Shown: positions 2,941 to 51,082 of the stretch, piece by piece
Numbering within the stretch: position 1 is the first letter of the stretch
Layout of the letters: each line of letters opens with the position of its first letter
The notes under the pieces: model-generated
What the model was told of the DNA's origin: nothing
Seen by the model: only the letters and a program-made list of their open reading frames with translations
The model's database searches: none
Translations under genes and position numbers: made by a program
IMG/VR virus record: IMGVR_UViG_3300045955_000245
Location: 1 to 51,493 of that record
Source of the DNA: a virus
Taxonomy: Duplodnaviria > Caudoviricetes
DNA: 51,493 nucleotides
Reading direction: 5' to 3' (one strand)

Positions 2941-2947
2941 CACCGGA

Positions 2948-16852: not shown

Positions 16853-16890
16853 TCCATCACTCCCACTCCATCACTCCCACTCCATCACTC
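16849..16890. repeat. 3 x 14-bp tandem repeat CCACTCCATCACTC
   Basis: Exact copies at 16849, 16863 and 16877. Confidence 0.95.
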
Positions 16891-17100
16891 CCGCCGCAGG
16901 TCCACGTCCTGCCGCAGCCGTTCGAGCGTCTCGCGCGTCTCGCGCGCCTGCCGCTCGATAATTTCCTGCCGCCGGATAATCGATTGCTGCAACTCGTCGG
17001 GAATGTGCCCCCGCGCGGCACGGCCGCCGGTGCCAGCGTCGCCGCTCGGGCCGATACCGAGCGCCCGCACGACCCATGCCCACCAGCCGCCTATAGCCAC
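16885..17100 (-). CDS. Hypothetical coiled-coil protein
   Basis: Charged helical C-terminus; operon position. Confidence 0.5.
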   Translation of the reverse strand: MAIGGWWAWVVRALGIGPSGDAGTGGRAARGHIPDELQQSIIRRQEIIERQARETRETLERLRQDVDLRRE

Positions 17101-20415: not shown

Positions 20416-20467
20416 ACTCGCTCGCTCGTTCGGTCGCTCGGTCGCTCGGTCGCTCGCTCAAGAACGC

Positions 20468-26621: not shown

Positions 26622-26665
26622 ATCACATCACATCACATCACATCACATCACATCACATCACATCA
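26622..26665. repeat. (ATCAC)8 microsatellite; reads (TGATG)n on the coding strand
   Basis: Eight perfect units plus ATCA. Confidence 0.95.
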
Positions 26666-27034
26666 GAGCTTCCCGAGCGCCTGGATTGTGCGCTGCTGGT
26701 ACTTCGGCCACTCTTGGGTGGCGGCCGGCGTCATGTAGGGCTGCGGCGGGATGAAGTTGCCGCTGATCCAGTGGTGGAAGCCGTACTCTTGAAAGACCGA
26801 GTAGTCGAGCGGTGAGTACACCACCCAGGCGACGCTGTGGATGGGCGCCGCGTCCTGCGCCACCGCTATCGAGTTGCGCAGCGCGCCGGTATCCACCGGG
26901 GCCAGCGCTTTGGCCCGCGACTGGATGGCCCTGGCGGACTGCTCGGCCGACTGGAACGCCAGCCCCGGCAACTTCGACAGGATTTCCGGGAAGCGGTTCT
27001 GCCGCACCCGGACGGAGAGCGCGCGTTGGGCCAT
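26663..27034 (-). CDS. HK97 gp10-like neck protein
   Basis: AKALAPVDTGALRNSI...YS.FQEYG...PQPYMTPA. Confidence 0.85.
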   Translation of the reverse strand: MAQRALSVRVRQNRFPEILSKLPGLAFQSAEQSARAIQSRAKALAPVDTGALRNSIAVAQDAAPIHSVAWVVYSPLDYSVFQEYGFHHWISGNFIPPQPYMTPAATQEWPKYQQRTIQALGKL

Positions 27035-31223: not shown

Positions 31224-32513
31224 TCAGATGCCCGTGCAGGTGCAAAAGGCCGATGGCCTATACACGGCAAGCGCTAATCTTGACTCAGCCAAGATGGCCA
31301 CCTTGTTGTCGATGAAATAGGTAGAGTGCTCGGTACTCAGGGTGACGGTGATGCCCTCGCGCCGCAGCACCTCGGCGTAGGGCCGGAACGCACCCACCAG
31401 GCCGGTGCCGGACGTGATATTCGTCGTCTGCCGCACCGGCAAGCCCCAAATCCGATCGGGGCCCTCGTCCGACGGGTTGCCCCAGATGTAGATGCCGTCC
31501 GTCGTCCGCAGCAATTTGATGTCCGTCCAGTCGCCGGGGTGCACCACGAACGCCGTGGGCTCGGCAAACCCACTGCCGGCGCTGCCTCGGACGAGCTGCA
31601 TGGCCTTGTACACCGTGTCAGGCGTCGGATCGGCGCCCTTGGCCTGCGTCTGGATGCCGGTGCGGTTGATAATGCCGTCCAGGTTGGGCGCGACGCCGTC
31701 GCCCACCAGCACCTGCAACTCTTCCCGGCGGCGGACGTTCGATGCCATCCGCCCCCGGAGTTGCGACTCGAGGAAGGGCACGTCGTCCAGCGCCTCTTTG
31801 GTGGCGGGTATCCAGGTCGGGATTTTGCGCACCGGTTCCGTCCGCAGCGTGAACCCTTCGGCGCTCTCCGGCTTGCTGACGCCCTCCGCTGTTTCTGCGG
31901 CGGCGTTCGTGACCGTCGTCTCTTCGTAGTACTCGACGCTGTTGCTCATGGTCTCGCCCTGGAGCATCAGGTCGGTGGTGGTGCGCTCCTCGACGGCCAT
32001 TGCGACGAGTGCGCGGCGGTCGGCCTGCGGCGAGATGTCACTGAGCGTGACCAGCGTCTTGAAGTCGAGATAGGGCAACTCGATTTCGACGGTGCCGCGG
32101 TTCGCCTGGCGAAACGCCTTGTACTCCTTGTGCTCGAGCAGGAAATGGCGCAGCGACTTGGCGGCGGGTTGCCCGTAGCCGTAGCCGTAGCCGTAGCCGC
32201 CGGAACCGTTCAGTCCAGCGGCGTGGCCATTCCCGTTCGGCAGCGGCACGTTGGGCACCGGCTCAGTCAAGGCCCGCACCTTGAGCGCGTTGTTCTGGTT
32301 AATCAGCCACAGGTTGTGCAGCCGGTCGAACTCGATGCCCAGCGCCTCGAGCTCGTCGTTGCGGCGTTTGATCTCGCCGGCCTTGTAGTGCGTGTCGCCG
32401 TCGAGCAGCGTCACCTTGGACAGGTCGAGGTCCGGGCCGGCCTCCTCGAAAATCTTGTGGAGCTGCTCCCGCTTGGCCGCCAACTCCTCGCGGACCTCGG
32501 CAAACGATGGCAT
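31224..32513 (-). CDS. Major capsid protein (HK97 fold)
   Basis: N-terminal delta-like region; AETAEG..KPES; AFVVHP.DW; IWGLPV; F..NKVAILAESRL...VYRP.AF. Confidence 0.95.
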   Translation of the reverse strand: MPSFAEVREELAAKREQLHKIFEEAGPDLDLSKVTLLDGDTHYKAGEIKRRNDELEALGIEFDRLHNLWLINQNNALKVRALTEPVPNVPLPNGNGHAAGLNGSGGYGYGYGYGQPAAKSLRHFLLEHKEYKAFRQANRGTVEIELPYLDFKTLVTLSDISPQADRRALVAMAVEERTTTDLMLQGETMSNSVEYYEETTVTNAAAETAEGVSKPESAEGFTLRTEPVRKIPTWIPATKEALDDVPFLESQLRGRMASNVRRREELQVLVGDGVAPNLDGIINRTGIQTQAKGADPTPDTVYKAMQLVRGSAGSGFAEPTAFVVHPGDWTDIKLLRTTDGIYIWGNPSDEGPDRIWGLPVRQTTNITSGTGLVGAFRPYAEVLRREGITVTLSTEHSTYFIDNKVAILAESRLALAVYRPSAFCTCTGI

Positions 32514-32532
32514 CGCTGTGGTACTCCTCTCC

Positions 32533-33711
32533 CTATCCGGGTACTGGGGGCTGCGGGGACGGCGGGGCAAGGTCCGCGAAGCGCCGCGCAAACTGGGCGT
32601 AGCGCCGGTGCAGTTCGTGGGGATGCAGCGCCGCCGGATCGTCGGCTCGCTTGAGCGCGCCGTCCAACTCGGCCCGCACCGCCTGGAGACGGCGCAGCAG
32701 GCCGCCGGCGTAGTCCTTCACCGCTAAGGCTTCGTCGTCCGAGGCGTTGGCCAGCCGCGCGGCGTACTCGTCCAGATCGGCCAGCACATGCTCGCCGGCG
32801 TCCAGGATGGACAAGCCCGCCGCCTTGAGTGGCGGCGGCTCCCTACTGCCGTCACGAAGATGGCGGGCCAGGTGCGCCCACACGCCTTGCCGATCCGAAT
32901 CAGGAATGGTCGTACCCGAGCGGCCGCCATTCAGGACGGCAATCCCGGACGAGCAGGCGGTCAGGTTGGCGGCGCCGACGCTCCCGCTACCGGAGACCTC
33001 GTGGTGCCCGAATTTATAAGTCGCTTTGGCCGCCGGGTCGCCGTCGCCGTCCATCCAGGCGTGCGCCCTTCTTAGGGCCGCCGCGTCGTTGGGTAGCCGG
33101 CGCTCGTTGGCCGGGCCGTCCCAACTCCCCGTAGAGGTGCCAGTGGAGTGGGCGCCGATCGCCCGCTTGGTGCCGGCTGCTGGCTCGACTTCCGGCGGCG
33201 GTTCGGCGTCAGGAGTGGGCGCCGCCTTGATGCGGGCGGTGCCGGTGCCGATGCCGGCGCCCAACAGCACCGGCGAGACCTCGAACACGTCCAGCCCCTC
33301 GAGGAAGCGCACCTTGGCGCCGTCGTGCTGGCCGACCGACCACTTGGTGATGATGAAGCCGTAGCTCCACTCCTGGAGATCACCGAGCTGCTTGACCGTG
33401 CGGTACGTATCGGCGCCGGCCGCCGTGTCCAGAAAGAAACTGCCGTCCACCCAGGCCCGATGGGAGTCGGCGTGGATAGTGCCCTTGCCGACCGGCAGCA
33501 CGCCCCAGTTGTGGCCCCACGCCGCGATGCGCACCGCCTGGTTTTGGGTGAAGGCGCCGGCGACGGTGACGTCGCCGTCCCAATCCTTTGTGCCGAACGT
33601 GGCGAACGTGGCGCGGAAGTCACCCTCGGCGGCGCCGGCGGTGCCCGCCTTGAGCTCGAGCGGACTGCGGTAGGTCTTGCGCTGGCCTTGGTCCAACAAA
33701 ACGGCCTCCAC
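32533..33711 (-). CDS. HK97-family prohead protease with C-terminal extension
   Basis: FATFG.KDWDGDV...GAF; H; EWSYGF; FEVSPVLLGA. Confidence 0.9.
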   Translation of the reverse strand: MEAVLLDQGQRKTYRSPLELKAGTAGAAEGDFRATFATFGTKDWDGDVTVAGAFTQNQAVRIAAWGHNWGVLPVGKGTIHADSHRAWVDGSFFLDTAAGADTYRTVKQLGDLQEWSYGFIITKWSVGQHDGAKVRFLEGLDVFEVSPVLLGAGIGTGTARIKAAPTPDAEPPPEVEPAAGTKRAIGAHSTGTSTGSWDGPANERRLPNDAAALRRAHAWMDGDGDPAAKATYKFGHHEVSGSGSVGAANLTACSSGIAVLNGGRSGTTIPDSDRQGVWAHLARHLRDGSREPPPLKAAGLSILDAGEHVLADLDEYAARLANASDDEALAVKDYAGGLLRRLQAVRAELDGALKRADDPAALHPHELHRRYAQFARRFADLAPPSPQPPVPG

Positions 33712-34604: not shown

Positions 34605-36097
34605 CGCGCCAACTCCACCGTCTTGACGTGCCCGTTGCGCCTGGCACGCGCTCGCCGCTGCATCGCTTCGTCGTCGTCCTCTTCGTCGTCACCGGGCGGC
34701 GGCAGCGCGGGTAACGGCTCCGGTTCCTCCATGGGCAGCGCCAGCAGGTCGGCGGGCGCCGTCGCGGTGATAGTCGCCGGGACGTAGACCACATCGCCGT
34801 CCGGTTCGGGCATCGGGTCCAGCCCGATGGCGGCGCGCGCCTCGTTCAGCGTCACCATGCCGGCCAGCAGGTCGGCCCGCATCCGCTCGTGCAGCGCGTT
34901 CTGGTCCTCCTGCAACACCCGTACCTGGGTCAGGTCAAACGCCACCTTTAATCGGGACGGGTCGCCGAAGTCCGGCACCAGCTGGCTGTTCACGTCCGCC
35001 GCCAGCGAGCGTTGCATCGGCACGAGCAGCGATTCGTACAAATCTTCCCGCGCCTCGGCCATGTTGCTGTACGTCGATCGGGCAAGGCCGGCGCCCAGCC
35101 CGACGACGATGGCCGGCGTGCCGAACACCGCCGAGATGCGCTCCTCGGTGATCTGCCGCAACTCGCGCAGCACCATCTGCTGCGGGTTGAAGGCCAAGAC
35201 GGACACCTGGGTCTTGGCCGCCATCACTAGCGGCTCGCCCACGCGGTCGCCGCCGAACCTACTGGAGAAGCTGGCTTTAATCAGGTCGGCGTTCTCCTGG
35301 GTGAACTCGGCGTCGTCGCCCGGCGACAGCACCACGCCGGGCACGCCCAAATTCCTGAGAAGGGAAGCCGTCCAGTTGGCGGCGCTGTTGTCGGTGGCAA
35401 TCTCTCGGAACAAGCTCGCAAGGGGCGACAACCCCTTGCGCACGTTGTCCGGGTCCAAGCCATCCCGGAAGTGCACTACGTCTTGCGGCGGGATGCGGTA
35501 GTCGTTGCCGCCGACGCGGTACTCGTAGTGCGAGATGAACGTCGTACCGTCGCCGCCCCGCGACTGCTCGGGCCACTTCGGCTCGAGCATCGTCGATGGC
35601 ACCCACCACAGCTCGACGACGGTGCCGGCGGCGGCCCGCACCTTGAGCCAGTAGGCGTTGCCGGTCAAGACGTAGTCGGCCAGCGTGCCGGCCCACAAGA
35701 GCAGCCCGGAGTAGTACGGGTTCGGCCGTTCCAACACGGTTTGTAGCCGGTTCTCCGGCCGCGCTACCCACTCAGGATTACCGGGCGGCGCGCCGCCCCT
35801 GCCGTCCCGCCGGAAGTAGACGGTGCACGGCGCTTCCGGGAACGTGCGCACGATCTTGCGCATGCAGGCCATCACTACGGCGTTGCCGCGGCCGTCGCCC
35901 ACCTCGGCGGCATACTCGCGGCGGGTTGCACCCAACTGGCTGGCCCACCACCACGAGCGCGGCTGGCCGGTGGCGAAGCGCATCTGGAAGGCTTTCCAGC
36001 TGGCCCGCGCGGCGGCGAGCGTGCGCCGCACCAGCACGAACGGGACTCTTGGCGCCTCAGTGGGCGGCGCCGGATTAGCGGCCAGGTAGGTGCTCAC
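34601..36097 (-). CDS. Portal protein (HK97 family)
   Basis: LERPNPY; GNAYWLK; VVHFR...GLSPL; ISAVFGTP...TYSNM.EA; MVTLNEAR..IGL.P. Confidence 0.95.
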   Translation of the reverse strand: MSTYLAANPAPPTEAPRVPFVLVRRTLAAARASWKAFQMRFATGQPRSWWWASQLGATRREYAAEVGDGRGNAVVMACMRKIVRTFPEAPCTVYFRRDGRGGAPPGNPEWVARPENRLQTVLERPNPYYSGLLLWAGTLADYVLTGNAYWLKVRAAAGTVVELWWVPSTMLEPKWPEQSRGGDGTTFISHYEYRVGGNDYRIPPQDVVHFRDGLDPDNVRKGLSPLASLFREIATDNSAANWTASLLRNLGVPGVVLSPGDDAEFTQENADLIKASFSSRFGGDRVGEPLVMAAKTQVSVLAFNPQQMVLRELRQITEERISAVFGTPAIVVGLGAGLARSTYSNMAEAREDLYESLLVPMQRSLAADVNSQLVPDFGDPSRLKVAFDLTQVRVLQEDQNALHERMRADLLAGMVTLNEARAAIGLDPMPEPDGDVVYVPATITATAPADLLALPMEEPEPLPALPPPGDDEEDDDEAMQRRARARRNGHVKTVELAR

Positions 36098-37311
36098 GCC
36101 AACACCCGCCATTGCTTGGTGCGCATCCCTAAGAGTTGGCACGCGCCGGAGAGCGCGTCCACCTGGTCGTCGTGGGCACCCTGCGGAAACGCCTCGACCT
36201 CGGCCAGGAAGTCGCCCGTCCACGCACCCCGAACGAGTGCCACTTTGCCCTGCTCGGCCTTGGCGATCCACGGCTGCGCCCGCGCCAACTTGTCCCTGTC
36301 CACGGTCACCGGCCGTACCGGGGTCTTGACCGCCGCCACGTCCCTGAGAATATCTTGGACCGCCGCCAACTGGAAGCCGGCTTGCTCGATGCCCACGGGC
36401 GTCTCCGGTTCGGCCGCCATCGTCTCCAGGATCACCCGGCGGGCGTCGGGCCACTCCCACCGGCCGCGGCGGATGTCGGCTACCCATACCATCCCGTCCG
36501 TAGAGAGGGCCGCGCGGCAGCCAACGGTGTAGTCGGCGCTTTCCTTGGTGGACGCCGCCAGGTCCCAGTAGCGGCACCACTTGAGCGGCTCGCCGAAGGG
36601 CGGCGCGTCCACCAGCCGGAACCACTCGCGGCGGATCACGCCGGCGCCCAACGTCACGAACTCGCCGGCGAGCTCCTGGCGCGCGAACTCGCTCGAGTAC
36701 TGCGTCTGTAATGCCTGGCTGAAGTCCTCGTCCACGAACGGGTTGGCGGCCGTGCTGGTCTGGTAGATGGCCGTCATAGCATCGGCGCGCTGCACGAACA
36801 CGTCGTAGACCCAGTTGAAGCCCCGCGGCGTCGTCGTCACCCAGCAGCGGCCGGTCACGCCGCCCTCGCGCAGGACGCCCAGCAGCACCGGCCACGTCTG
36901 TGCGTCGCAGTGCGCCGCCTCGTCGATCCAGGCCCACGACGCGGATGGTCCCCGCAGGCGGTCGGGGTGCTCGGCCGAGCGAAACAGGACCTCGTGCCCG
37001 CCGCGCACGCTCAGGCGCATCTCCGACTGGTTGACGTGGTCGAGCAGTGGTGCCCACACGTCCAGGGCGACTCGCCAGGTGGCGTCCCGCAGGATCGGGT
37101 AGGTAGGCGCCACCACAATGCCCAGCGACGGCCGCCCGAACTCCTGCACCAGCGCCTTGGCGGCGCCGGCCATCGTCTTGCCCGAACCGCGCCCGCCGAT
37201 GAACGCGCAGAAGCGGTGCTGGTCTGACACGAAGCGGTACTGCGTCCCGGACAGCGCCAGGGCGGCGCTGTTGCCGGCGGCGGCGCTAGGACGCGCTCGG
37301 GACTCGATCAT
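36094..37311 (-). CDS. terL: Terminase large subunit
   Basis: GGRGSGKT; WIDEAA; TTTPRG; YWDLA...DYT; HDDQVDALS. Confidence 0.95.
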   Translation of the reverse strand: MIESRARPSAAAGNSAALALSGTQYRFVSDQHRFCAFIGGRGSGKTMAGAAKALVQEFGRPSLGIVVAPTYPILRDATWRVALDVWAPLLDHVNQSEMRLSVRGGHEVLFRSAEHPDRLRGPSASWAWIDEAAHCDAQTWPVLLGVLREGGVTGRCWVTTTPRGFNWVYDVFVQRADAMTAIYQTSTAANPFVDEDFSQALQTQYSSEFARQELAGEFVTLGAGVIRREWFRLVDAPPFGEPLKWCRYWDLAASTKESADYTVGCRAALSTDGMVWVADIRRGRWEWPDARRVILETMAAEPETPVGIEQAGFQLAAVQDILRDVAAVKTPVRPVTVDRDKLARAQPWIAKAEQGKVALVRGAWTGDFLAEVEAFPQGAHDDQVDALSGACQLLGMRTKQWRVLA

Positions 37312-37726
37312 CGACCACCCGCACCGTGAGCGCAAAGGGCAGCGGCGCGCCGCCCGGTCCGCTGTGCTCAAACGCGCCGCGCTCCTTGTACTTGTCGGGC
37401 GCCCGCCCTTTCAGCAGGAAGATGAGGAGGGTATCGCTGTACTTGGTCTCGACGATGCGCTCGAGCATCTCGCCGTTGTGGTACACGCCCCGCTCCGACT
37501 GCACGCCATCGGTGGCCCGCCGCCACGCCTCGGCCTCCAGGTATTCGGTTGCCTCGATTTCGGCCTGCTTGAATGACAGGGCGAAGGCGTCGTCGTGCTC
37601 CTGCCACTGGTACACGTCGGTGCGGTTGGGGATGCCGGCCTGGCGGCAGGCGGCGCTGACGTTCCCGCAGCGGGCGAACGCCTCCAGAAACGCCTTTTTC
37701 AGGTGTCGTACCTGTCGCCGGGTCAT
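37286..37726 (-). CDS. terS: Terminase small subunit
   Basis: AFLEAF...GNVSAAC..AG; LEAEAWRRA.DG; YSDTLLIFLLK. Confidence 0.85.
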   Translation of the reverse strand: MTRRQVRHLKKAFLEAFARCGNVSAACRQAGIPNRTDVYQWQEHDDAFALSFKQAEIEATEYLEAEAWRRATDGVQSERGVYHNGEMLERIVETKYSDTLLIFLLKGRAPDKYKERGAFEHSGPGGAPLPFALTVRVVDDRVPSAS

Positions 37727-38258: not shown

Positions 38259-39365
38259 CTACGATGCGTCCAACGTCACGGCCGTCCGGTTGCCGTCGGG
38301 GTCGACGCTCGCCGTCACCCGATTTTTGGTGTCGCCCACGTCCCTAATCGTGACGGTATTCGTCGCCGCGCCCGACAGTTTGCCGGCCAGCGACGACAGC
38401 ATCACGCGCATCGACTGGCGCAGCGTCCAGCCGGTCTCGACGCCGGCGGCCCGGTCCAAGAGCGCGTCGGCGTTCTGGGTCGCCGTGGGGATGTCCCCCG
38501 TGGCCGCCGGACTCGCCGGCAGGTTATCCGTCTTGGCCTTGATGGCCGCCACTTCGGTATCGACAAAATCGTCGATGGTGTCCACGCTGGTCTGCGTGGC
38601 CCTCGACGAGATGGTCGCGTTCACGTTATCCACCAGCAGCTTGCCGACGCTGTTCGCCGTCGAGAGCGCCGAGGTGAGCGCGTCCCACACCGCCTGCACC
38701 CCCGCTGCGGACAAACTGTAGCCGCTCTTGTCGTTGTTGGTCGCTACCGTCACGGTAAAGCCAAACGCCGAGAGCGTCCTAGTCGACGACGACCACACCT
38801 TATCAGCCGCCGCCTGGGAGAACTCGCTCGCGCCGATGGCGTCGGTGGCAATGGCGGCGGCATCGATGGCGCCCGCGGCGAAGGTGGCGGCCGTAATGGC
38901 GCCATCCGCAAGTTCGGCCGCGCCGATGGCGTCGGTGGCAATGGCGGCGGCATCGATGGCGCCCGCGGTGAACGCGGCCGCCGTAATCGCGCCGTTCTGG
39001 AAACTGCCGACCTCGACACCGCCCGAGGCGTCCACGTCCATGCTCCTGCCCGACGTGGCGGGATAGGCCAGGTCGTCGGGCACCCGCGCGTGGACACGCC
39101 ACTGGAGGTTCACGCGCTTGACGCCGGTGGCGCTCAGGCTCACCGTCAAGACGCCCAGGGTATCGGTGTGGCTGCTCGACAGGGTGAGCGCGTAAAACCC
39201 GTTCTCGCGCTCGCTCACCGTGACGGTCATGGCCGCGAAGGCGGCGCCGCCCTTGCTGATGCGCTTCGTCCAGTCGCCGTCGACCTTGCCGGTCACGCCG
39301 TCGCCCGACGCGTCGAACGCAAACACGACCACGTCGAGGCTGGTCGATTGCTTGCAGGGAAACAC
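38259..39365 (-). CDS. Repeat-rich fibre-like protein
   Basis: 10-aa repeats (GAITAATFAA/GAIDAAAIAT); NGFYALTL..HTDTLG N-terminus paralogous to 39605..41293. Confidence 0.7.
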   Translation of the reverse strand: MFPCKQSTSLDVVVFAFDASGDGVTGKVDGDWTKRISKGGAAFAAMTVTVSERENGFYALTLSSSHTDTLGVLTVSLSATGVKRVNLQWRVHARVPDDLAYPATSGRSMDVDASGGVEVGSFQNGAITAAAFTAGAIDAAAIATDAIGAAELADGAITAATFAAGAIDAAAIATDAIGASEFSQAAADKVWSSSTRTLSAFGFTVTVATNNDKSGYSLSAAGVQAVWDALTSALSTANSVGKLLVDNVNATISSRATQTSVDTIDDFVDTEVAAIKAKTDNLPASPAATGDIPTATQNADALLDRAAGVETGWTLRQSMRVMLSSLAGKLSGAATNTVTIRDVGDTKNRVTASVDPDGNRTAVTLDAS

Positions 39366-39604: not shown

Positions 39605-41293
39605 TTACGCAAACTCGCCGCGAGTGTGCAACGTCCCCGAATCCGAATGGGTCGACGTCGCCAGCGTCGTGCTCCCGTCGTCTTTGAACAGCGTTTGGGT
39701 CGTCGCGTCCTGCGTGATCTTGTTGCGCGCCAGCGAGAACGCCCACGTCAGCGCCTCGAGCGTCGTGCCGGTCACGCCGGGCACCGCCGACAACTCGGTC
39801 ATGGCCTTGGCCCACACCGCATCGCGTATCTCGTTGGCGGCGTCACTGGCGATCGCCGCCGCATCAATCGCGCCGGCCGCGAACGTGGCCGCGTCGATCG
39901 TCCCGGCGGCCACCTTCGCCGCCGTAATCGCATCGGCGGCGATGGCCCCCGCGTCGATGGCGTTGTCCGCAATGACCGTCGCGGTAATCGCGTCGGCCGC
40001 AAACGTGGCGGCGGTAATGGCGCCATCGGCGAGCGCGTCGGCGTCGATGGCGTCGGTGGCGATCTTCGCGGCGGTAATGGCCCCATCCTGGATTGAGGTA
40101 GACGTGACGCTGTTCGCCGCGAGCGTGGCAACCGTCTGCACCAGCCCGCCCGCCAACGCGCTCGGGGCACCCCCGAGCCACAGCGCGAGGTCGACGCGGC
40201 CGGACGGCAGCAGCGCGAAGGTGCTGGTGGCGTCCGGGTTGGTGGCCCAGTTGGGCGTGACGTTGGCCACTTTCGACGAGCCGGTGTAGTCGCTCACCAG
40301 GCGCACCTGACCGGCCCCGGTGCCGCCGGTGAGGTAGACCAGCGCGTCGTTGTAGAAGTCGTCGGTGGCGCTCGCGCTCGCATCCAACGTAATCGTGCCG
40401 GCGGCGCCCGCCTGGGCGGTGTTGCTCCTGATGCTCTGCAAACCCGTATCGGCCGCAAAGGTAGCGCGGTCGATAGCGCCATCGGCAATCTTGGCGGCGG
40501 TGATCGCGCCGTCCGCCAATTCGGACGACGTGATGGCGTTCGCCGCGATGGCCGTGGCGTCAATCGCCCCGGCGGCAAACGTCGCCGCGTCGATCGCGCC
40601 GTCGGCAATCTTGGCGGCCGTAATCGCATCGGCCGCGATCTTCGCCGCCGTAATCGCGTCGGTCGCAATGGCCGTAGCATCAATGGCGCCGGCCGCGAAC
40701 GTCGCAGCGGTAATCGCGCCGTCCGCCAATTCATTGGCTCCGATGGCGTCCGTGGCGATGGCGGCGGCGTCAATCGCCCCGGCCGCGAAGGTGGCCGCGT
40801 CGATGGCCCCATCCGCGATCTTGGCGGCCGTGATGGCGTCGGCCGCGATGGCGGTCGCGGTGATGGCCCCCGAGGCAATGGCCCCGGCGCTGGCGTCCAC
40901 CCGGCCGGACACGAGCGCGTTGGGCGCGCTCCCTAACCACTGCGTCACGTCGACCTGGAGCAGGTCGGTCGCGAGGTACGAGTCCCACACCTGCGACGGC
41001 ACGACTAAGAACTCGCGCCACACCGGCAGCGCGCCGGACTCGTGCACCGCCACGACGAGCACCCCCAGGGTGTTGGTATCGGTGGCGTCGAGCGTGACCT
41101 CGTACCAACCGTTCTCCTCGTGCGTGAGCGTTTGGGCCGCCGCCTTCTGCGCCCAGTTGCCGGCGTTTTTCTTTAGGCGCACGTCCGGCTGCGTAATCGT
41201 GAGCCCGGTCTCGGCGGTCTTGCCGTCCGTGTCATCGAGGAACGGGCCGAGTGGCACGTCGACGCTCGTGGACTGGCGCAGCCAGGTGGCCAT
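39605..41293 (-). CDS. Repeat-rich fibre-like protein
   Basis: More than 20 decameric repeats; ASATDDFYN...GTGAGQVR...DYTG domain. Confidence 0.75.
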   Translation of the reverse strand: MATWLRQSTSVDVPLGPFLDDTDGKTAETGLTITQPDVRLKKNAGNWAQKAAAQTLTHEENGWYEVTLDATDTNTLGVLVVAVHESGALPVWREFLVVPSQVWDSYLATDLLQVDVTQWLGSAPNALVSGRVDASAGAIASGAITATAIAADAITAAKIADGAIDAATFAAGAIDAAAIATDAIGANELADGAITAATFAAGAIDATAIATDAITAAKIAADAITAAKIADGAIDAATFAAGAIDATAIAANAITSSELADGAITAAKIADGAIDRATFAADTGLQSIRSNTAQAGAAGTITLDASASATDDFYNDALVYLTGGTGAGQVRLVSDYTGSSKVANVTPNWATNPDATSTFALLPSGRVDLALWLGGAPSALAGGLVQTVATLAANSVTSTSIQDGAITAAKIATDAIDADALADGAITAATFAADAITATVIADNAIDAGAIAADAITAAKVAAGTIDAATFAAGAIDAAAIASDAANEIRDAVWAKAMTELSAVPGVTGTTLEALTWAFSLARNKITQDATTQTLFKDDGSTTLATSTHSDSGTLHTRGEFA

Positions 41294-44942: not shown

Positions 44943-46271
44943 CTAGCCATCGCTCGCCCCCAAGTCGCAGCCGAGGAAGCGGTAGCCCAATCGGCGGGCC
45001 ACATCCCGCGTCGTGCCGCTGCCCGCGAAGGGGTCGAGGACCGTCCCGCCGTCCGGGCAGGCGTGACGCAACACCCGCTCGACCAGCGCATCTGGGAAGG
45101 GCGCGAAGTGGCCGCGGGCGGCCCCCTTGCGCCCGACCGGGATGGCCCACACGTCCGCGTGGTCGTCGCCCCGCTTGAAGTAGGCGTGCGTACTGCGCGT
45201 CAGGACGTAGATGGGTTCCCACGCCTGGGTGAGCCGGTCGAACACGTTCTCCGGTTGGTGCCCGACCTTATGCCAGACGATTTTTCCTGAGAGACGCCAG
45301 CCGAAATCGAGCACCAGGCGCAGCACGACGGTTTCGGGAATGAGGCAGAAACTTTTGTCGGGCACGTCCAATTCGCGGGCAGCCGGTGCCGATGACGCCG
45401 CCGCGATGGCGAGGTTGGAGATGCCGCGCGCCCGCGCTGGATCGCCCCGGTAGCGCCCCGGCTGACTGCCGAGCGTGTCGCCCAAGTTGAGGAACAGGCA
45501 GCCGGCCGGGGTAAGCACGCGCCCGACCTCGGCCAGGATGGCGCACAGGTTGGCGGCGTACTGCTCCGGCTCCGGCTCCTGGCCCAACTCGCGGGGATCG
45601 CCGTTGGTGTACGTGCGCTTCGCCCAATAGGGCGGCGACGTGAGGCAGGCATCCGCGGTGCCGTCGCGCAGCCAGCCGAGGTAGGTCAGCGCGTCGGCCC
45701 GCGCGATGCGGTCGAGTAATTCGGGCGGTTGCGGCTGCGGCGGTCGAGCGGCCACCCGAGCCTCAGACGCCGCGGTGCGCTCCTCGTGCGCCGCGGCGTG
45801 GCTTTTGGCCCGACGTTTCGGTTCAGGCTCCGACTCGGGTTCCTGGTCCGGCTCTTGTTCTGCTACCGGCCCCGGCTCCACTGATGCATTTGCATCATCC
45901 TCGGGAGTCTCGTCTTCTGGAGTCTCGTCCGTCGACGATGCATTTGCATCGCGCACGACCGTCGATTGATCGACTCCGAGGACGGACGCCGCTTCTCTCG
46001 TGGTCAGGCCGTCCTCGGTGAGTTCCTTGACGGCCTCCCGCCGGTCCTCGATCGACAGGCGCACGTAGCCCCCGAGGCGCTGGTCGACCCACTCCCTGGT
46101 GGTCAGCCCGAGGGCCTCGGGCACCCCGAGGCGGCGGCCAAGGGCCACCTGGCGCCAACCCCCGGCCACGACTTGGCCGAGCGCCTGCGTGTATTCCTCG
46201 GCCTCCTCACGGGAAAGGCGGGGAGGAGCATCCTCCCACGGCAGCGGTTGTTGGGCCAAGGTCGCGTTCAC
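44943..46271 (-). CDS. DNA methyltransferase (N4-C/N6-A, beta class) with N-terminal HTH
   Basis: GLTTREAASVLGVDQSTVVRD HTH; TSPPYW; FLNLGD; HFAPFP; VLDPFAGSGTT. Confidence 0.9.
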   Translation of the reverse strand: MNATLAQQPLPWEDAPPRLSREEAEEYTQALGQVVAGGWRQVALGRRLGVPEALGLTTREWVDQRLGGYVRLSIEDRREAVKELTEDGLTTREAASVLGVDQSTVVRDANASSTDETPEDETPEDDANASVEPGPVAEQEPDQEPESEPEPKRRAKSHAAAHEERTAASEARVAARPPQPQPPELLDRIARADALTYLGWLRDGTADACLTSPPYWAKRTYTNGDPRELGQEPEPEQYAANLCAILAEVGRVLTPAGCLFLNLGDTLGSQPGRYRGDPARARGISNLAIAAASSAPAARELDVPDKSFCLIPETVVLRLVLDFGWRLSGKIVWHKVGHQPENVFDRLTQAWEPIYVLTRSTHAYFKRGDDHADVWAIPVGRKGAARGHFAPFPDALVERVLRHACPDGGTVLDPFAGSGTTRDVARRLGYRFLGCDLGASDG

Positions 46272-46687
46272 CGCGTCGTTCCCCTCCTGAGTGCGGACTC
46301 CCACTCGCCAAGCGCCGCCCAATCCGCGCAGTCGGCCACCGGTTCGAGGCGCACGATCGGCGGTGACGGACGCCAGTCGCCGCCGTGGTAGGCCAGCACC
46401 CGGAACGGCCCGGTCTCGGCGTCGCGTGCCTCAACGACGAAGATGGGCACCAACCGCATCAGCGCGTTGTAGGCGATGACCTCGGCAAAACTGAGCGGTT
46501 CTCCCGGTTGCTTGCAGTCCAGGATGGCCACAATGCCGGGAGGCGCCTTGCGGATCAACACCAGATCGAGGTCCGATGCCCAGAACCCCGGCCCCAACTT
46601 CGCCTTATGGGCATGCTTGAAGGCATCCCGACGAGGGCTGCCCCGCAGCGAGAGCGCATGCTTGAAGTCGTCTACCCGCAACGGCAC
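46268..46687 (-). CDS. Putative PD-(D/E)XK nuclease
   Basis: ASDLDLVL...VAILDCKQ. Confidence 0.5.
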   Translation of the reverse strand: MPLRVDDFKHALSLRGSPRRDAFKHAHKAKLGPGFWASDLDLVLIRKAPPGIVAILDCKQPGEPLSFAEVIAYNALMRLVPIFVVEARDAETGPFRVLAYHGGDWRPSPPIVRLEPVADCADWAALGEWESALRRGTTR

Positions 46688-46788
46688 GCGTTCACCCCCA
46701 AGGGCGACGTACACACCACATGCACGCTGGCCGGCTCCATCGCGGCGAGCACGTCGACCACGTGGCCGGTGAGCACGCGCGTCGTCAT
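46672..46788 (-). pseudogene. Truncated methyltransferase 5' stub
   Basis: MTTRVLTGHVVDVLAAMEPASVHVVCTSP|LGVNACRCG*: MTase start broken inside the SPPY motif. Confidence 0.7.
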
Positions 46789-47147
46789 GCCCCCGGCTCC
46801 TGCCCGTAGATGGTCGAGCGATAACACTCGTACCGGTGCGCGTGTTTTCCGGGTTGGGCCGATGGACGCGTCGCACCCGTGCGGACGATCCAGCCCCGCT
46901 TGAGCGCCCGCTGCCACACGGCCCCCATCGCGTTTCCAGATACCGGGTGCCACTCCAGCGCCGCCGCCAAATCGTCGGTGTGCACGTAGCGATTGCGCCT
47001 GCACACCCGCTCGAGCACGTCCAGCGCGTACTCGCCCCACGCGGTGCCCGCCTGCGCCGCCGCGAGGTCCATCCCGCATTCCTTGCGCCGCTCGCCTTCC
47101 GGTGCGTCGAACAGCGGGAGTTGGCGTAGTCGTTGGCGCAGTCTCAT
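46785..47147 (-). CDS. Hypothetical protein (possible winged helix)
   Basis: QLPLF...NAMGAVWQRA..RGWI..TG. Confidence 0.6.
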   Translation of the reverse strand: MRLRQRLRQLPLFDAPEGERRKECGMDLAAAQAGTAWGEYALDVLERVCRRNRYVHTDDLAAALEWHPVSGNAMGAVWQRALKRGWIVRTGATRPSAQPGKHAHRYECYRSTIYGQEPGA

Positions 47148-47157
47148 GTCCGCATCG

Positions 47158-47366
47158 TCCTTTCCGCCGCGTGTTCTGTCGGTGTGCGTCCCTGCCTGGC
47201 CCTACCCGACCTTGCCACGCCTGACCGCACCCAGCCGAGCCCTCCCGGACCCAACCTTGCGCTACCCTGCCCAGCCTTGCCTGGCCCTACCCGACCTTGC
47301 CCGGCCCGGCCGCACCCAGCCGAGCCACACCGCGCCCTACCCGACCCAACCTGGCCCGACCCAGCC
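47158..47366 (-). repeat. GGY-NN pentamer array C (35 units, 47366-47192) plus conserved tail; candidate ncRNA
   Basis: 33 of 35 units start GGC/GGT in unbroken 5-nt phase; intergenic; tail ends ACGCGGCGGAAAGGA. Confidence 0.9.
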
Positions 47367-47377
47367 CTGTGGCCCGA

Positions 47378-47851
47378 TCACATCATCCCGTTGGCCCGCA
47401 GGATGTCCTCGATGGCATTCAGGCGCTGCTCGTGGGCGTGGGCAAACGCCGCCAGCGTGCCCAGGATTTTCCGTTGGGCATCGAACGACGCGAGTTGTTC
47501 GCCGGTCAACCGACTCAAGTCGGTCACGTTGGAGACGGTGAGTGCCGATTCGTACTGGCGGCGCGCCTTGCTCTTGTGCTGGTTGGCAACGCTCAGGTGC
47601 TCGACCGCCTGGATGACGCGGTAGCCCCTGCCCGGCAGCGCCACCAGCCAGCGCCGCCGCTGCTCCCCGAACTCCTTGCGTGCCCGGTAGATGGCGTGGC
47701 GCGTCCGCTTGACCTCCTCGACCGACTTCTCCAACACGTCGGCCAATTGGTCGTAGGTGATCACGTCGCCAAACTCGGCCCCGCTCAGCAAGTGGTCGAA
47801 GATCAGCCGCCACTCGGCGACCTCGCCCTTCGGCTCGAACAGCGTGCTCAT
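47378..47851 (-). CDS. Winged-helix-like protein between the pentamer arrays
   Basis: GDVITYDQLADVL...AIYRARKE...LVALPGRGYRVI, then a helical C-terminus. Confidence 0.65.
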   Translation of the reverse strand: MSTLFEPKGEVAEWRLIFDHLLSGAEFGDVITYDQLADVLEKSVEEVKRTRHAIYRARKEFGEQRRRWLVALPGRGYRVIQAVEHLSVANQHKSKARRQYESALTVSNVTDLSRLTGEQLASFDAQRKILGTLAAFAHAHEQRLNAIEDILRANGMM

Positions 47852-47860
47852 CGTCGTCGT

Positions 47861-48057
47861 TCCCTTTCGCCCCTGCGTCCTGCCTGTTGCGTATGGGTAT
47901 CCCTGCCCTGCCCAACCAAGCCATGCCTAGCCCTGCCGCGCCCAACCAAGCCACGCCTGGCCCCGCCGCGCCCCACCAAGCCCCGCCGAGCCACGGTCTG
48001 CCTCGCCCTGCCCCGCCTCGCCGTACCTCACCACGCCTCACCAAGCCACGCCAAGCC
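47861..48057 (-). repeat. GGY-NN pentamer array B (31 units, 48057-47903) plus tail; candidate ncRNA
   Basis: 30 of 31 units start GGC/GGT in phase; ends GGC-AG-GGA; tail ends GCGAAAGGGA. Confidence 0.9.
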
Positions 48058-48073
48058 GCGGCCTGCGCCCCGG

Positions 48074-48652
48074 CTAATGCGCGACGACCACCGTGAACCG
48101 GCCGTAGCCCAACTTGCGGGCGTCGCACAGGCCTTCGGATCGGCCAGCTTTCTCCGCGATCCGCACGAAGTCGTCGGGGTCGAGCACGTCCTCCTGGAGT
48201 TCGAGCTCGACCGTCAGCGACCAGCGGCGGAAGATGGGCCGCATCCGCATCACCTTGCCCCGCTGGATACCCACGCTCTTGCGGAAATGGAACTCCGGCG
48301 CCGCCCACAGTTTCAGCGGCTCGCGCGGGCCGTCGTACACCAGCGGCACGCGGTCGCTGACGACGGCGACGGCGCGAATCAGCGTGGCTCCCTGGCGCGT
48401 CAGCGTCGCGCCCCGCTCGAAGCACTTCACGACGTTGGCGGTCGGCACGTGGACGCCCATGTCGGCGTCGTGGTACAGGCCGCCCAGGAACTCCAGTCGC
48501 TCGATCTCGGCGTCGTCGGCCTCCGTCCGGTGCCGGCTCCCCTTGTCGGTCAGCTTCGCGATCTCCTTGGCGAAGCCGTTGGTCTTATCCGCCAGCTGCA
48601 CGTTGTGCATCACCAGCCCGGTCGTGCCGGTCAATTCCACGATGGTCCTCAC
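48074..48652 (-). CDS. RAMP/Cas7-like protein (192 aa)
   Basis: GTG start with GGGAGG RBS; VELTGTTGLVMHN strand, VPTANVVKCFERGA, RPIFRRWSLTVEL, C-terminal Gly loop GLCDARKLGYGRF. Confidence 0.65.
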   Translation of the reverse strand: MRTIVELTGTTGLVMHNVQLADKTNGFAKEIAKLTDKGSRHRTEADDAEIERLEFLGGLYHDADMGVHVPTANVVKCFERGATLTRQGATLIRAVAVVSDRVPLVYDGPREPLKLWAAPEFHFRKSVGIQRGKVMRMRPIFRRWSLTVELELQEDVLDPDDFVRIAEKAGRSEGLCDARKLGYGRFTVVVAH

Positions 48653-48757
48653 GTCGTTTCCTCCCACGATGTCGTGTTCTGCGAGTGGTGCCCGCCCGTA
48701 GACAGGCCAGTGGTTGTGGCGTGGGGGTCCGACCCCAGCCAAGCCCAGCCTGGTCCC

Positions 48758-48857
48758 TCCTTTCCGCCGCGTACTTTCCGTGTGTCCCTGCCTTGCCCAG
48801 CCCTGCCGAGCCCGGCCCTGCCTGGCCCCGCCCGGCCTGGCCCGGCCGCGCCAAGCC
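48758..48857 (-). repeat. GGC-NN pentamer array A (14 units, 48857-48788) plus conserved tail; candidate ncRNA
   Basis: 14 of 14 units start GGC; ends GGC-AG-GGA; tail ends ACGCGGCGGAAAGGA, identical to array C. Confidence 0.9.
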
Positions 48858-48860
48858 CTG

Positions 48861-49835
48861 TCATGCGGTGAACTTCTTGCCCAGCTTCTCCGCCGCCGCC
48901 CGCATCGTCTGGTGGAACCGCTGCCGCTCCGCGTCTGTCGGTGGCACCAAGTCTGGCCGATCGGGCACCCGGATGGGCACGTACCGATCGACCTCGGGCG
49001 GCGCGCGGCCGTTTCCCTGGGCGCGCCGGGCCGCGTCGGCCGCCGCGCGCTCGTCCAGCCGCGCCAGCCGATCCGCTTCGGCCTTGTCCAACCAGTTGAC
49101 CAGGAAGCGGTAACTACACCGCTTCTGCCGGTGGCGCGGCTCACGCAGCCACTCGGCGATCTTCTCCGCCTCGATGGGCAGGTCGAGCAACGGGTAGCGC
49201 GTCCCCAGCTTGCGGAGTTGGGCGGCGTCTACCGCGTACCCCTGCTTGCCGAAGCCCGAAAGCGTCTCGTGGAAGTTCTGGAGATCGCCGTCGGACGCCG
49301 TGGTGCCTTCGGACGCGTCAGCGTCCAGCACCGCCGCCTCGCGCGAGACGGCGGTCCGGTTAGGTCCGGTCCGGTTAGGTCCGGTAGGCGCGTTACTTAG
49401 CGTTACAGGTGCGTTACTAACGCGTTTGTAACGCGTTACGTTTGCGTTACTCGCTTCCTGTAGGGAGGAAGTGTCCTGGTGGCGTTCGCGCCAGTGCTGC
49501 ACGCGTTGACGCGTTTGCTCGCGCACCCGGTCGCGTCGCTCAAGCAGGCGCCCTGCGTACTCGTACCAGTCGTGGATGGTGTTGTCCGCATCCACGAACC
49601 CGCACCGCAAGAGGGCCGCCGACAGCGCGGCCGGATCGCCGTCCCACAGACACGCGGCGGCGACGTCGCCCGTATCGCTGTTCGACAGGTCGCCGTCCGG
49701 TGCGTAATCGAGCGCCCACCACCACAGCAAGTGCAGATGACCGATGGTGGCGGGGACCGAAACGCCAAGCGCACGAGCCAATCGCAGCGTCTTGGGGTGC
49801 CTCGCTAGCGTGGTGTGGGACTCTATCCAAGCCAT
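48861..49835 (-). CDS. Phage replication initiator (replisome organizer-like)
   Basis: MAWIESH..L.RHPK..RLAR.LG...IGHL..LWWWA..YAPDG; IHDWYEY; FLVNWL C-domain. Confidence 0.8.
   Translation of the reverse strand: MAWIESHTTLARHPKTLRLARALGVSVPATIGHLHLLWWWALDYAPDGDLSNSDTGDVAAACLWDGDPAALSAALLRCGFVDADNTIHDWYEYAGRLLERRDRVREQTRQRVQHWRERHQDTSSLQEASNANVTRYKRVSNAPVTLSNAPTGPNRTGPNRTAVSREAAVLDADASEGTTASDGDLQNFHETLSGFGKQGYAVDAAQLRKLGTRYPLLDLPIEAEKIAEWLREPRHRQKRCSYRFLVNWLDKAEADRLARLDERAAADAARRAQGNGRAPPEVDRYVPIRVPDRPDLVPPTDAERQRFHQTMRAAAEKLGKKFTA
49353..49450. repeat. Probable replication origin iterons inside the initiator gene
   Basis: GCGTTAC at 49390, 49400, 49411, 49433 and 49444, inverted copy at 49428; adjacent GGTCC/GGTTA pentamers. 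Confidence 0.65.
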
Positions 49836-49847
49836 GCTACTACTAGT

Positions 49848-49876
49848 ATTTTACTAAGCCATACGTATGTCAGCAA
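49848..49876 (-). promoter_or_regulatory. Promoter of the replication/array operon
   Basis: TTGCTG(49876-49871)-N17-TAAAAT(49853-49848) with palindrome CATACGTATG (49860-49869) in the spacer. Confidence 0.6.
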
Positions 49877-50891
49877 GTGTCGTTTCGTGCGATAATGGCG
49901 TGGATGTCGCACGAGCAGGAGCGGAGTGATCATGGGGACCGTTGTCGACGTGAAGTTGGTTGACCACCGGCGCCGCCGGTACATGACCCAGGTGGAGTTG
50001 GCCGCCGCCGCCGGCGTCACGCCCTCGACCATCTTCAAGTTGGAGAAGGCCGGGCACCGGCCCCGCCTGTCCACCATGCGCCGCATCGCCGCCGCCCTGG
50101 GCGTCGAGCCGCTCGACGTCGACGAGTTCGCCAGGGCCGTCGAGCGCGAGCGGTAGCACCTGCTGGCGCAGCCGGTTGGCGGCGATGGCGCAGTTCTGCT
50201 CAAGCAGTTCCACGCCGATGGCCCACAGGCCGCGTTGCTGCGCCGCCACCAGCGTCGTACCGGTCCCGGCGAACGGGTCGAGTACGACGCCCCCAGTGGG
50301 GACGATTGCCAGCAAGTCCACCATCAGCGCCGTGGGCTTGCCCGCAATGTGCCACTTGTCGGCCTGGCGCACGACGTAGCGGTAGAAACCGGGCAGGCAG
50401 GCGCCAGCATCGGCCATCGGACCGTTGCTGCCCCACACCACGTACTCGCACTGATTGCGATAGCGCCCCTTCTGCGGTCGGGCGGCCTCGCTTTTGTCCC
50501 ACGGCACGACGCCGCGCCACACCCACCCGCCGGCCTGTAGCGCGTCGGTCGTGGTGGGCAACTGCCGCCAGTCGGTGAACAGACAGCAGATGCCGCCCGG
50601 TTTCGTGACGCGCAGGCACTCCGCCAGCCACAGGGCACACCAGTAGCCGTAGGCCCGCTGGTCGCGCGTGTCACCAGCGAACTCGGCCCGCTGCACGGCG
50701 GGATCGGAGAGGTACTTCACGCTCGGCGGCGGCAGCCGGTCGCCGCGCACCATCCCACCAGACGAGTAGGGCGGGTCGGCGACGACGGCGTCGACGCTTG
50801 CATCCGGGAGCGATGCGAGCACGGCCAGCGCATCGCCGTGGTACAGCGTCACCCCGCCGTGGTGGTAGTAGGGCGGCGGCAACCCGTTCAT
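49854..50891 (-). CDS. DNA adenine methyltransferase (DPPY, beta class)
   Basis: LYHGDAL; VADPPY; HIAGKP; VLDPFAGTGTT; the last ~95 codons run antisense through the XRE gene and its promoter. Confidence 0.9.
   Translation of the reverse strand: MNGLPPPYYHHGGVTLYHGDALAVLASLPDASVDAVVADPPYSSGGMVRGDRLPPPSVKYLSDPAVQRAEFAGDTRDQRAYGYWCALWLAECLRVTKPGGICCLFTDWRQLPTTTDALQAGGWVWRGVVPWDKSEAARPQKGRYRNQCEYVVWGSNGPMADAGACLPGFYRYVVRQADKWHIAGKPTALMVDLLAIVPTGGVVLDPFAGTGTTLVAAQQRGLWAIGVELLEQNCAIAANRLRQQVLPLALDGPGELVDVERLDAQGGGDAAHGGQAGPVPGLLQLEDGRGRDAGGGGQLHLGHVPAAPVVNQLHVDNGPHDHSAPARATSTPLSHETTLADIRMA
49926..50156 (+). CDS. Small XRE-family HTH regulator
   Basis: MTQVELAAAAGVTPSTIFKLEKAGHRPRLSTMRRIAAALGV. 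Confidence 0.85.
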   Translation: MIMGTVVDVKLVDHRRRRYMTQVELAAAAGVTPSTIFKLEKAGHRPRLSTMRRIAAALGVEPLDVDEFARAVERER

Positions 50892-51082
50892 TCGCGCGGC
50901 TCCGTTTGGGCGCGCGTCCGTAGCCGGTACCGCCGCTCCTCTTCGCGGTGCTTCACCCGCCGGCACGCCGTCGCCTTGCAGTACCGCGCCCCGGCGTAGC
51001 GCAGCGGGTAGCCGCAGACGACGCACACGGCACCGGATGCGGCGCACGCGGCGGCGTAGCGCGTCGGGAGACTGGTACTCAT
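50888..51082 (-). CDS. Small Zn-finger protein
   Basis: CVVCG...YCKATAC. Confidence 0.55.
   Translation of the reverse strand: MSTSLPTRYAAACAASGAVCVVCGYPLRYAGARYCKATACRRVKHREEERRYRLRTRAQTEPRE

Follow-up and report, generated by a model that had tools for sequence, protein, structure and literature searches.

We describe here a VIPR (Viral Interference Programmable Repeat) locus on the minus strand of IMG/VR record IMGVR_UViG_3300045955_000245, a tailed-phage genome that was analysed over its full length of 51,493 nucleotides (the window). As judged from sequence comparison, it is a complete VIPR locus, most likely of the vap1-associated type II, that lies in the early (replication) operon of a complete temperate soil phage; we put the probability of this reading at about 0.93. 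The locus adds a genuine example to a published kind of system and does not represent a new one. VIPR was first described in three 2026 preprints (bioRxiv 10.64898/2026.04.26.720920, 10.64898/2026.04.26.720927 and 10.64898/2026.10.15.759431), and what is said of published systems below follows these sources. According to all three, a Vipr protein is combined with vrRNAs, which are made of GGY/NN pentamers (Y, C or T) with a 3′ tail, one protomer per repeat; the NN dinucleotides pair with double-stranded DNA, skipping one base, and the outcome is transcriptional silencing of satellites and prophages. Seven types, six vap families and variable array layouts, including one called 'staggered', are reported in the same preprints, and bioRxiv 10.64898/2026.04.26.720920 lists 667 systems.

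Results

A Cas7-like protein homologous to SUSP1 Vipr

The locus had been pointed out in an earlier reading of the sequence (the original prediction) as a candidate repeat-RNA-guided system, with a RAMP/Cas7-like protein recognised from a VPxxxxK segment and a terminal G-rich loop. Both features are present in the translation of the 192-amino acid (aa) gene, as VPTANVVK and GLCDARKLGYGRF. The protein matches PDB chain 36pp_D ('SUSP1 Vipr protein') with a phmmer E of 9.4e-19, residues 5-190 of the query being paired with residues 6-189 of the chain, and it matches phrog_4652 (E 1e-40), the PHROG to which the Viprs of felixounaviruses and of phage LESphi2 also belong. No Pfam family was matched by this Vipr. 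Its AlphaFold2 model (predicted local distance difference test score, pLDDT, 96.8) has a Cas7-type fold, the best structural matches being Csm3, Cmr4 and type VII Cas7 at 7-13% sequence identity. The structure comparison and the SUSP1 match thus bear out the RAMP/Cas7-like assignment. The match to VIPR that the original prediction had suggested, with the caution that the system might not be wholly undescribed, was also correct: the protein is a homologue of the solved SUSP1 Vipr, and the system is in print. The Vipr family numbered 156 proteins in a word-indexed search and 2013 clusters at 50% identity in an exhaustive search (E ≤ 0.001).

In SUSP1 Vipr, residues H17, R138, D177, R179, W178 and E71/M72 have been tied to the reading of G1, G2 and Y3, with W178 stacking on G2, and mutagenesis found R138 and D177 to be required in vivo (bioRxiv 10.64898/2026.04.26.720927). 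SUSP1 H17, R138, D177 and R179 align with H16, R138, D177 and R179 of the phage Vipr; across 46 homologues, R138 does not vary and conservation of D177 is 90% or higher. The position of W178 is taken by A178, which is invariant in 20 close homologues, the Y-pocket residues E71/M72 correspond to A72/N73, and C173 corresponds to E173. SUSP1 K33, a required contact to the target backbone, aligns with A32, next to a lysine (K33), and the alignment is possibly off by one at this point.

Three in-phase arrays of GGY-NN pentamers

Arrays were called as at least four tandem GG[C/T]NN units next to vipr, after bioRxiv 10.64898/2026.04.26.720920 and 10.64898/2026.10.15.759431. On the minus strand the order is a replication-initiator gene, array A, vipr, array B, vap, array C and a 120-aa open reading frame (ORF); coordinates are collected in Table 1. 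The arrays of 14, 31 and 35 units, interleaved with the 192-aa and 157-aa genes, agree unit for unit with the dinucleotide lists of the original prediction, and the strict 5-nucleotide (nt) phase claimed there is unbroken within each of them. The claim of a constant GGC or GGT stands for 77 of the 80 units and fails for three, ACCGT in array B and CGCAA (47257-47261) and GGGAG (47242-47246) in array C. Fifteen distinct NN dinucleotides occur. The longest perfect in-phase GGY run has 21 units, compared with a maximum of 5 when the whole window was shuffled 100 times with its dinucleotides preserved; the GGY arrays are far beyond chance.

All three arrays lie between genes, as had been stated: array A, which begins 3 nt past the stop of the initiator gene, between that stop (48861) and the GTG start of vipr (48652), array B between the vipr stop (48074) and the 157-aa gene, which starts at 47851, and array C between the stop of the latter (47378) and the start of the 120-aa ORF (47147). 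Long ORFs that cross the arrays, for example 47297-48871 (+) and the part of 48074-49144 (-) upstream of the GTG, were rejected as genes because a 5-nt period cannot hold a reading frame and because homologues begin MRT.... The out-of-phase remnant between array A and vipr holds a small GGGGTC/GACCCC hairpin upon folding.

The irregular units in arrays B and C follow GGCAG, and GGCAR is the terminal motif in the related loci described below. On this basis each of the two arrays can be divided into two putative vrRNAs, B1 and B2 and C1 and C2, and the three arrays probably give five guides of 14, 12, 18, 20 and 13 units. B2 contains an internal duplication of 6 units (a 30-bp period with 85% matches in Tandem Repeats Finder). 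C2 repeats the 3′ part of C1 in diverged form, the two sharing TC TG GC .. .. AA CG AG CA and differing in two units. The fifth base of the unit (N5) is G in 37 of 77 units, as opposed to 493/1811 (27%) in relatives, and AG, CG and TG together account for 32 of the 77; this G-bias fits no codon-position pattern of the phage's own genes.

Ends of the arrays

All three arrays end in GGCAG or GGCAA. The segments that follow run into the ribosome-binding site of the next gene, and ACGCGGCGGAAAGGA is common to those after arrays A and C. When the three ends were aligned with those of four relatives, GGCNN-GGCAR-GGA was the sole invariant feature. Among 148 arrays of relatives, the last unit is GGCAG or GGCAA in 52, and GGA follows directly in 55. 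The three array-end segments have no predicted stable fold (z +0.85, -1.56 and -0.32) by minimum-free-energy folding, which is blind to pseudoknots; the comparison tails gave z -4.26 (LESphi2) and -1.78 (felixounavirus VpaE1). The locus has no match among the Rfam families, and therefore no hammerhead ribozymes between the guides.

The partner protein

The 157-aa partner belongs to phrog_5926, as do the genes that come directly after vipr in VpaE1 (7e-76) and Pseudomonas phage LESphi2 (4e-31). The VpaE1 Vipr matches SUSP1 Vipr with an E of 2e-127, and from its position after vipr we infer that the VpaE1 gene is vap1; the phage Vap matches the VpaE1 protein with a BLASTP E of 4e-4. An AlphaFold2 model of Vap (26 sequences, pLDDT 93.2) has a helix-strand-helix-helix-helix-strand-strand unit at residues 13-80 and two long helices at residues 82-153, and its matches to winged-helix DNA-binding domains are weak. 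We read the protein as Vap1-like, with a predicted N-terminal winged-helix-like domain and a long helical hairpin. Type II Vaps have been described as predicted DNA-binding proteins, and Vap1 as enhancing protection (bioRxiv 10.64898/2026.04.26.720920).

Arrays and vap accompany vipr in related loci

IMG/VR, species genomes and metagenomes supplied 90 loci that encode relatives of Vipr, 78 of them with full-length matches; 6 or more GGY units were counted as an array. An array on the vipr strand was present in 52 of the 78 full-length loci and an array on the opposite strand in 5, with totals of 148 same-strand and 10 opposite-strand arrays. In the 48 loci flanked on each side by 500 nt or more, arrays were found in 36 and vap in 31. 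Within these 48, where the Vipr is at least 40% identical to that of the phage, co-directional arrays and vap are both present in 21/21; below 40% identity the figures are 15/27 for arrays and 10/27 for vap. The association of homologues with GGY-NN arrays, which had been put forward as a check, is therefore found. The closest relatives (53-62% identity) have the layout array, vipr, (array), vap, array. In close relatives with a full-length vipr the arrays have 25-47 units, and one locus (L050, 846-1369) has arrays of 51 and 46 units.

Two further layouts were observed. Locus L022 (3620-3948 region) has arrays of 47, 30 and 36 units, the last two of which meet at one shared base (3769) with a phase shift, a junction that resembles the published 'staggered' layout. 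Loci L028 (2524-2941) and L029 (63-480) have a same-strand array after vap and, upstream of vipr, three more long arrays (12, 26 and 24 units) that lie on the other strand; the phage does not show such a divergent layout.

Searches for targets of the guides

Candidate targets were scored by the fraction of NN positions matched, gapless, against a shuffled-guide null, a scheme taken from bioRxiv 10.64898/2026.04.26.720920 and 10.64898/2026.10.15.759431; for a natural target under the 1-nt-skip rule, 80% or more of the NN positions should match. Large collections were searched by exact seed only, and these searches are hence insensitive. The search of the dinucleotide strings against shuffled controls that the original prediction had proposed gave no target above the null, either in the phage's own genome or in related loci. 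In the own genome nothing exceeded shuffled guides at skips of 0-3 nt (best 16-24 of 24-40), and the only perfect matches were the arrays themselves, at skip 3; an absence of self-targets has also been published for other VIPRs (bioRxiv 10.64898/2026.04.26.720920). Mismatch-tolerant scans of 394 kb of related VIPR loci and of 492 kb around related replication initiators likewise gave nothing above the null.

Exact IMG/VR seeds made from units 4-13 of array A, from the core shared by C1 and C2 and from units 1-9 of B2 had no match. Units 4-12 of B1 had 9 matches, of 31-47% GC, that extended poorly, with the exception of L148-150, which reached 22/24 in contigs of 31-32% GC. All of these, L148-150 included, were rejected as targets, being chance matches or, at such low GC, ecologically implausible.

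Units 1-9 of B1 had 48 matches, compared with 4 for a reversed-order control. At 41 of the 48, the matched DNA encodes [LF]VFDVETDG, close to the N-terminal end of the exonuclease domain of T7-like DNA polymerases; this is motif I (ExoI) of that domain, which lies at the start of the polymerase gene. Pfam RNase_H_2 was found in 4 of 7 scanned fragments, in 2 of them above the curated cut-off, and tblastn of one fragment returned 1650 phage records, the best 40 of which are mostly annotated as DNA polymerase, T7's included. Since their mean GC is 43% and at most 20/24 NN positions are matched, the contigs with this seed are not natural targets of a 69%-GC soil phage. Three phage polymerases of higher GC (Ralstonia and Pseudomonas; 53-63% GC) matched at 13-14 of 24 positions, and B1 with up to 3 mismatches was found in 0/401 sampled Actinomycetota genomes. 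That the first nine units of B1 may read the ExoI motif of T7-like DNA polymerases is thus, with one seed and one control, a lead only. Such a reading would fit the published argument that a guide which passes over the wobble base cannot be evaded through synonymous mutations (bioRxiv 10.64898/2026.10.15.759431).

Phage and genomic setting

The IMG/VR record is a whole virus with completeness rated at 100%, a terminal direct repeat of 127 bp and a GC content of 69%. A PHROG profile scan, which covered 28 ORFs, recovered the gene set of a temperate tailed phage (Table 1). The 120-aa ORF probably stands outside the VIPR system, as no homologue of it lies beside vipr in any related locus compared. 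The two methyltransferases are probably orphan anti-restriction methylases, since the PADLOC scan of 65 ORFs revealed no restriction partner. A search of the phage for tRNA genes was negative.

Table 1. Features of the VIPR locus and of the phage genome around it
Feature	Position	Strand	Remarks
Replication-initiator gene, 324 aa	48861-49835	-	phrog_9474, E 3.5e-41; directly upstream of array A, co-directional
Promoter-like site	49845-49873	-	upstream of replication initiator; promoter-like scan
vrRNA array A	48788-48857	-	14 units, 14/14 GGY-NN; ends GGCAA-GGCAG, then GGA
Segment after array A	about 48738-48787	-	matches the segment after array C; GGA start in common
Out-of-phase remnant	48726..48750	-	GGCTG GGCTT GGCTG GGGTC GGACC; in the 135-nt spacer between array A and vipr
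vipr, 192 aa	48074..48652	-	stand-alone Cas7-like RAMP; GTG start behind GGGAGG
Array B	47903-48057	-	31 units in one 5-nt phase, 30 GGY; unit 13 is ACCGT (47993-47997)
Putative vrRNA B1	47998..48057	-	12 units; ends GGCGA-GGCAG before ACCGT
Putative vrRNA B2	47903..47992	-	18 units; ends GGCAG-GGCAG, then GGA
Segment after array B	47852-47902	-	matches the segment after array C; GGA start in common
vap, Vap1-like accessory protein, 157 aa	47378..47851	-	phrog_5926, E 3.9e-8
Array C	47192-47366	-	35 units in one phase, 33 GGY
Putative vrRNA C1	47267..47366	-	20 units; ends GGCTG-GGCAG, then GGTAG and CGCAA (47257-47266)
Putative vrRNA C2	47192..47256	-	13 units, one of them GGGAG
Segment after array C	47148..47191	-	GGACGCACACC...ACGCGGCGGAAAGGA; runs into ribosome-binding site and ATG of the 120-aa ORF
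120-aa ORF	46785-47147	-	directly after array C; phrog_27658, function not assigned
N6/N4 DNA methyltransferase genes (two)	44943-46322 and 49854-51047		bracket the block of initiator and VIPR genes
CI-like repressor	2284-2940		PHROG scan
Integrase	2897-4120		PHROG scan
Major capsid protein	31224-32591		PHROG scan
Large terminase	36094-37371		PHROG scan
Head protease, tape-measure protein, tail fibre			PHROG scan

The closest Vipr relatives in species genomes are 36-43% identical and come from Streptomyces, Micromonospora, Solwaraspora and a Nitrospira metagenome-assembled genome; the capsid protein has only partial matches, at 39-51% identity, in 401 Actinomycetota genomes. A sequencing-run search retrieved six soil DNA runs that contain half or more of the words sampled from the locus, and a single metatranscriptome run in which the share is 0.06. 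The RNA run yielded two 151-nt contigs, 49467-49617 and 49681-49831, both inside the replication-initiator gene, and none on the arrays; it speaks neither for nor against vrRNA expression. In DNA runs X5 and X6 the arrays are present without listed differences, which is uninformative on variability of the NN positions.

Other repeats in the genome were recorded alongside the arrays. Within the replication-initiator gene, in the region 49352-49439, a 15-bp repeat (CGGTCCGGTTAGGTC x2.3) precedes repeats of 11 bp and 21 bp (CGCGTTACTAA x4.7) and an inverted repeat of 16 pairs; these resemble origin iterons placed within the coding sequence of the initiator, an arrangement known from lambda O. A 7-unit GGY run on the plus strand at 49353-49387 coincides with the 15-bp repeat and was rejected as a guide, being a coding and iteron-type repeat inside that gene. 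Elsewhere, a perfect pentamer microsatellite, (ATCAC) x8.8, lies at 26622-26665 between ORFs 26061-26600 (+) and 26663-27034 (-) and is not a GGY repeat. Long imperfect coding repeats of 30, 90 and 120 bp occupy 38825-38993 and 39933-40870 in two adjacent ORFs, and the second of these (39605-41293) has three repeated stretches in its match to tail-fibre PHROGs. Between or at the ends of ORFs of the structural region lie, at 16849-16892 and 20417-20459, a perfect 14-bp repeat (x3.1) and a (CTCG)n/8-bp repeat.

Discussion

How the locus may work, and what else it may be

By analogy with the published SUSP1 and P. fulva VIPRs, the operon transcript would be cut into vrRNAs. One Vipr protomer would occupy each pentamer, with two neighbouring protomers sequestering each GGY, and the exposed NN dinucleotides would pair with double-stranded DNA, every third base being skipped. 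The filament on its target would then act as a roadblock to transcription, so that a rival phage, prophage or satellite is silenced, an effect that Vap1 would enhance. The idea, voiced in the original prediction, of a protein that polymerises on GGY while the NN positions spell a gapped target code corresponds to this published design.

Several observations weigh against assigning the locus to type II VIPR and to this mode of action. The post-array segments have no predicted stable structure, unlike the LESphi2 tail; the replacements at A178 and A72/N73 mean that details of GGY recognition may differ; and the assignment to type II depends on the Vap family and on the one Vipr that has been solved. 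There are internal duplications in arrays B and C in addition to the three irregular units, and the N5 bias, which fits no codon-position pattern, suggests that part of the tracts may be slippage products and not working guides. Furthermore, no natural target was found, scans being at the null and seed matches lying in contigs of implausibly low GC.

Some of these points would also be expected of a VIPR locus, relic or partly working, whose guide content is largely decayed or idle, with slippage-inflated arrays B and C and filler units. The 30-bp duplication in B, the diverged copy of part of C1 in C2, the irregular units, the strong preference for G at N5 with the prevalence of AG, CG and TG, and target searches that all ended without a target speak for such decay. 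However, vipr and vap are intact with high-confidence folds, the phase is held over all 80 units, and the long arrays of close relatives (25-47 units, and 46 and 51 in L050) indicate that arrays of such length are normal in the clade. With polymorphic targets, one would expect guide variants to occur in pairs directed at a single site, and the searches were insensitive, the big collections being searched by exact seed only. We consider decay of this kind rather unlikely.

It is very improbable that the pentamer tracts act as DNA, either as sites for the winged-helix protein or the initiator or as structure-forming, G-rich spacers that regulate the operon. The tracts do lie in 5′ untranslated regions (5′UTRs) beside an initiator gene that has iterons of its own, and the partner protein has a domain of DNA-binding type. 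Against this, the GGY-NN motif, the strand bias of 148 to 10 and the linkage to Vipr match a published RNA-guide system (bioRxiv 10.64898/2026.04.26.720920 and 10.64898/2026.04.26.720927), vrRNAs co-purify with Vipr in characterised systems (bioRxiv 10.64898/2026.04.26.720920), and a variable NN beside a fixed GGY is the opposite of an iteron. A degenerate remnant of class 1 CRISPR-Cas with a type III or IV Cas7 would account for the structural matches to Csm3, Cmr4 and type VII Cas7, yet the low identity to those chains (7-13%) stands against a SUSP1 Vipr match of E 9e-19. None of the 65 ORFs matches a Cas model in PADLOC at E ≤ 1e-5, the Vipr itself finding no Cas7 model at that threshold, and Tandem Repeats Finder lists no CRISPR-like array in the phage genome, so that the reported lack of cas1, cas3, cas10 and CRISPR array is upheld; there is no repeat-spacer array, and the repeats are 5-nt units. 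We give this explanation next to no credence.

Returning to a VIPR locus that functions, we also considered a bolder combination of proposals, which taken jointly we regard as doubtful. Here the soil clade would depart from the characterised vrRNA architecture: its guides would be tracts of 12 to ~50 units without a structured tail, fused head to tail in 5′UTRs and delimited only by GGCAR-GGCAR-GGA, and B1, at least, would be aimed at the ExoI motif of rivals' polymerases. As the fused tracts lie in the 5′UTRs of vipr, vap and the next gene, guide maturation would be coupled to gene expression of the operon. If this were true, filaments could far exceed the solved 12-mer, and B1 would read a wobble-proof [FL]V[FL]DVETDG of rival polymerases, that is, broad-spectrum targeting at the level of a protein motif.

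VIPR is a very recent discovery, an RNA-guided binding of DNA with a gapped code that has been proposed to pre-date CRISPR, and each well-annotated natural locus helps to map its diversity. The locus described here probably extends the vap1-associated form to a complete temperate soil phage of 69% GC, and records a clade, of 21 or more loci, in which long arrays are fused in 5′UTRs, the terminus is a simple GGCAR-GGA and the tryptophan that stacks on G2 is replaced by A178. Such contrasts are useful for defining vrRNA ends and GGY recognition, and they leave the picture of VIPR unchanged.

Comparison with known systems

The closest likeness is to the type II VIPR of SUSP1 and felixounaviruses. 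The Viprs are homologous over their full length and share phrog_4652, a phrog_5926 gene follows vipr, GGY-NN arrays lie upstream and downstream on the gene strand, and the systems are phage-borne without cas genes. Unlike SUSP1, the phage is temperate, of 69% GC and from soil, SUSP1 being a lytic coliphage; its Vipr is only about 31% identical, with A178 for W178 and A72/N73 for E71/M72, and a third array lies between vipr and vap. SUSP1-family vrRNAs have 9-13 units, each with a GGG-initiated tail of ~60-70 nt having a hairpin or pseudoknot, whereas the tracts of the phage have 12-20 units, are fused to arrays of 31 and 35, end in GGCAR-GGA and have no stable tail predicted. We counted 9-13 units in the tracts of VpaE1 and LESphi2, and vrRNAs with 9-16 repeats have been published for the clades of SUSP1 and P. 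fulva (bioRxiv 10.64898/2026.04.26.720920).

The VIPRs of Pseudomonas prophages (the P. fulva clade and LESphi2) resemble the locus in belonging to temperate phages with vipr beside the lysis-lysogeny and early region. The Vipr is 37.6% identical to that of LESphi2, phrog_5926 vap genes are present in both, and both have GGC-rich units and ends in GGCAA or GGCGA. LESphi2 has three upstream vrRNAs of 11-12 units, each with a strongly structured tail, whereas no such tail is predicted for the phage, and the published targets of the P. fulva clade are resident prophage regulators (bioRxiv 10.64898/2026.04.26.720920), none being found for the phage. The 'staggered' vrRNA arrays, compared here by figure legend (fig. 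S18 of the same preprint), consist of abutting or overlapping guides and recall the long uninterrupted tracts of the phage; unlike them, the phage keeps its 5-nt phase over the putative junctions with no shift.

Finally, the class 1 CRISPR backbone (Cas7: Csm3, Cmr4 and type VII Cas7) shares the fold of Vipr, but the phage locus has no CRISPR array, adaptation genes, Cas10, Cas5 or Cas6. In the published accounts, VIPR is periodic in steps of 5 nt along the guide and 3 nt along the target, as opposed to 6 nt on both in class 1 CRISPR, and, again in contrast to class 1 CRISPR, it binds double-stranded DNA without cleavage (bioRxiv 10.64898/2026.04.26.720920 and 10.64898/2026.04.26.720927).

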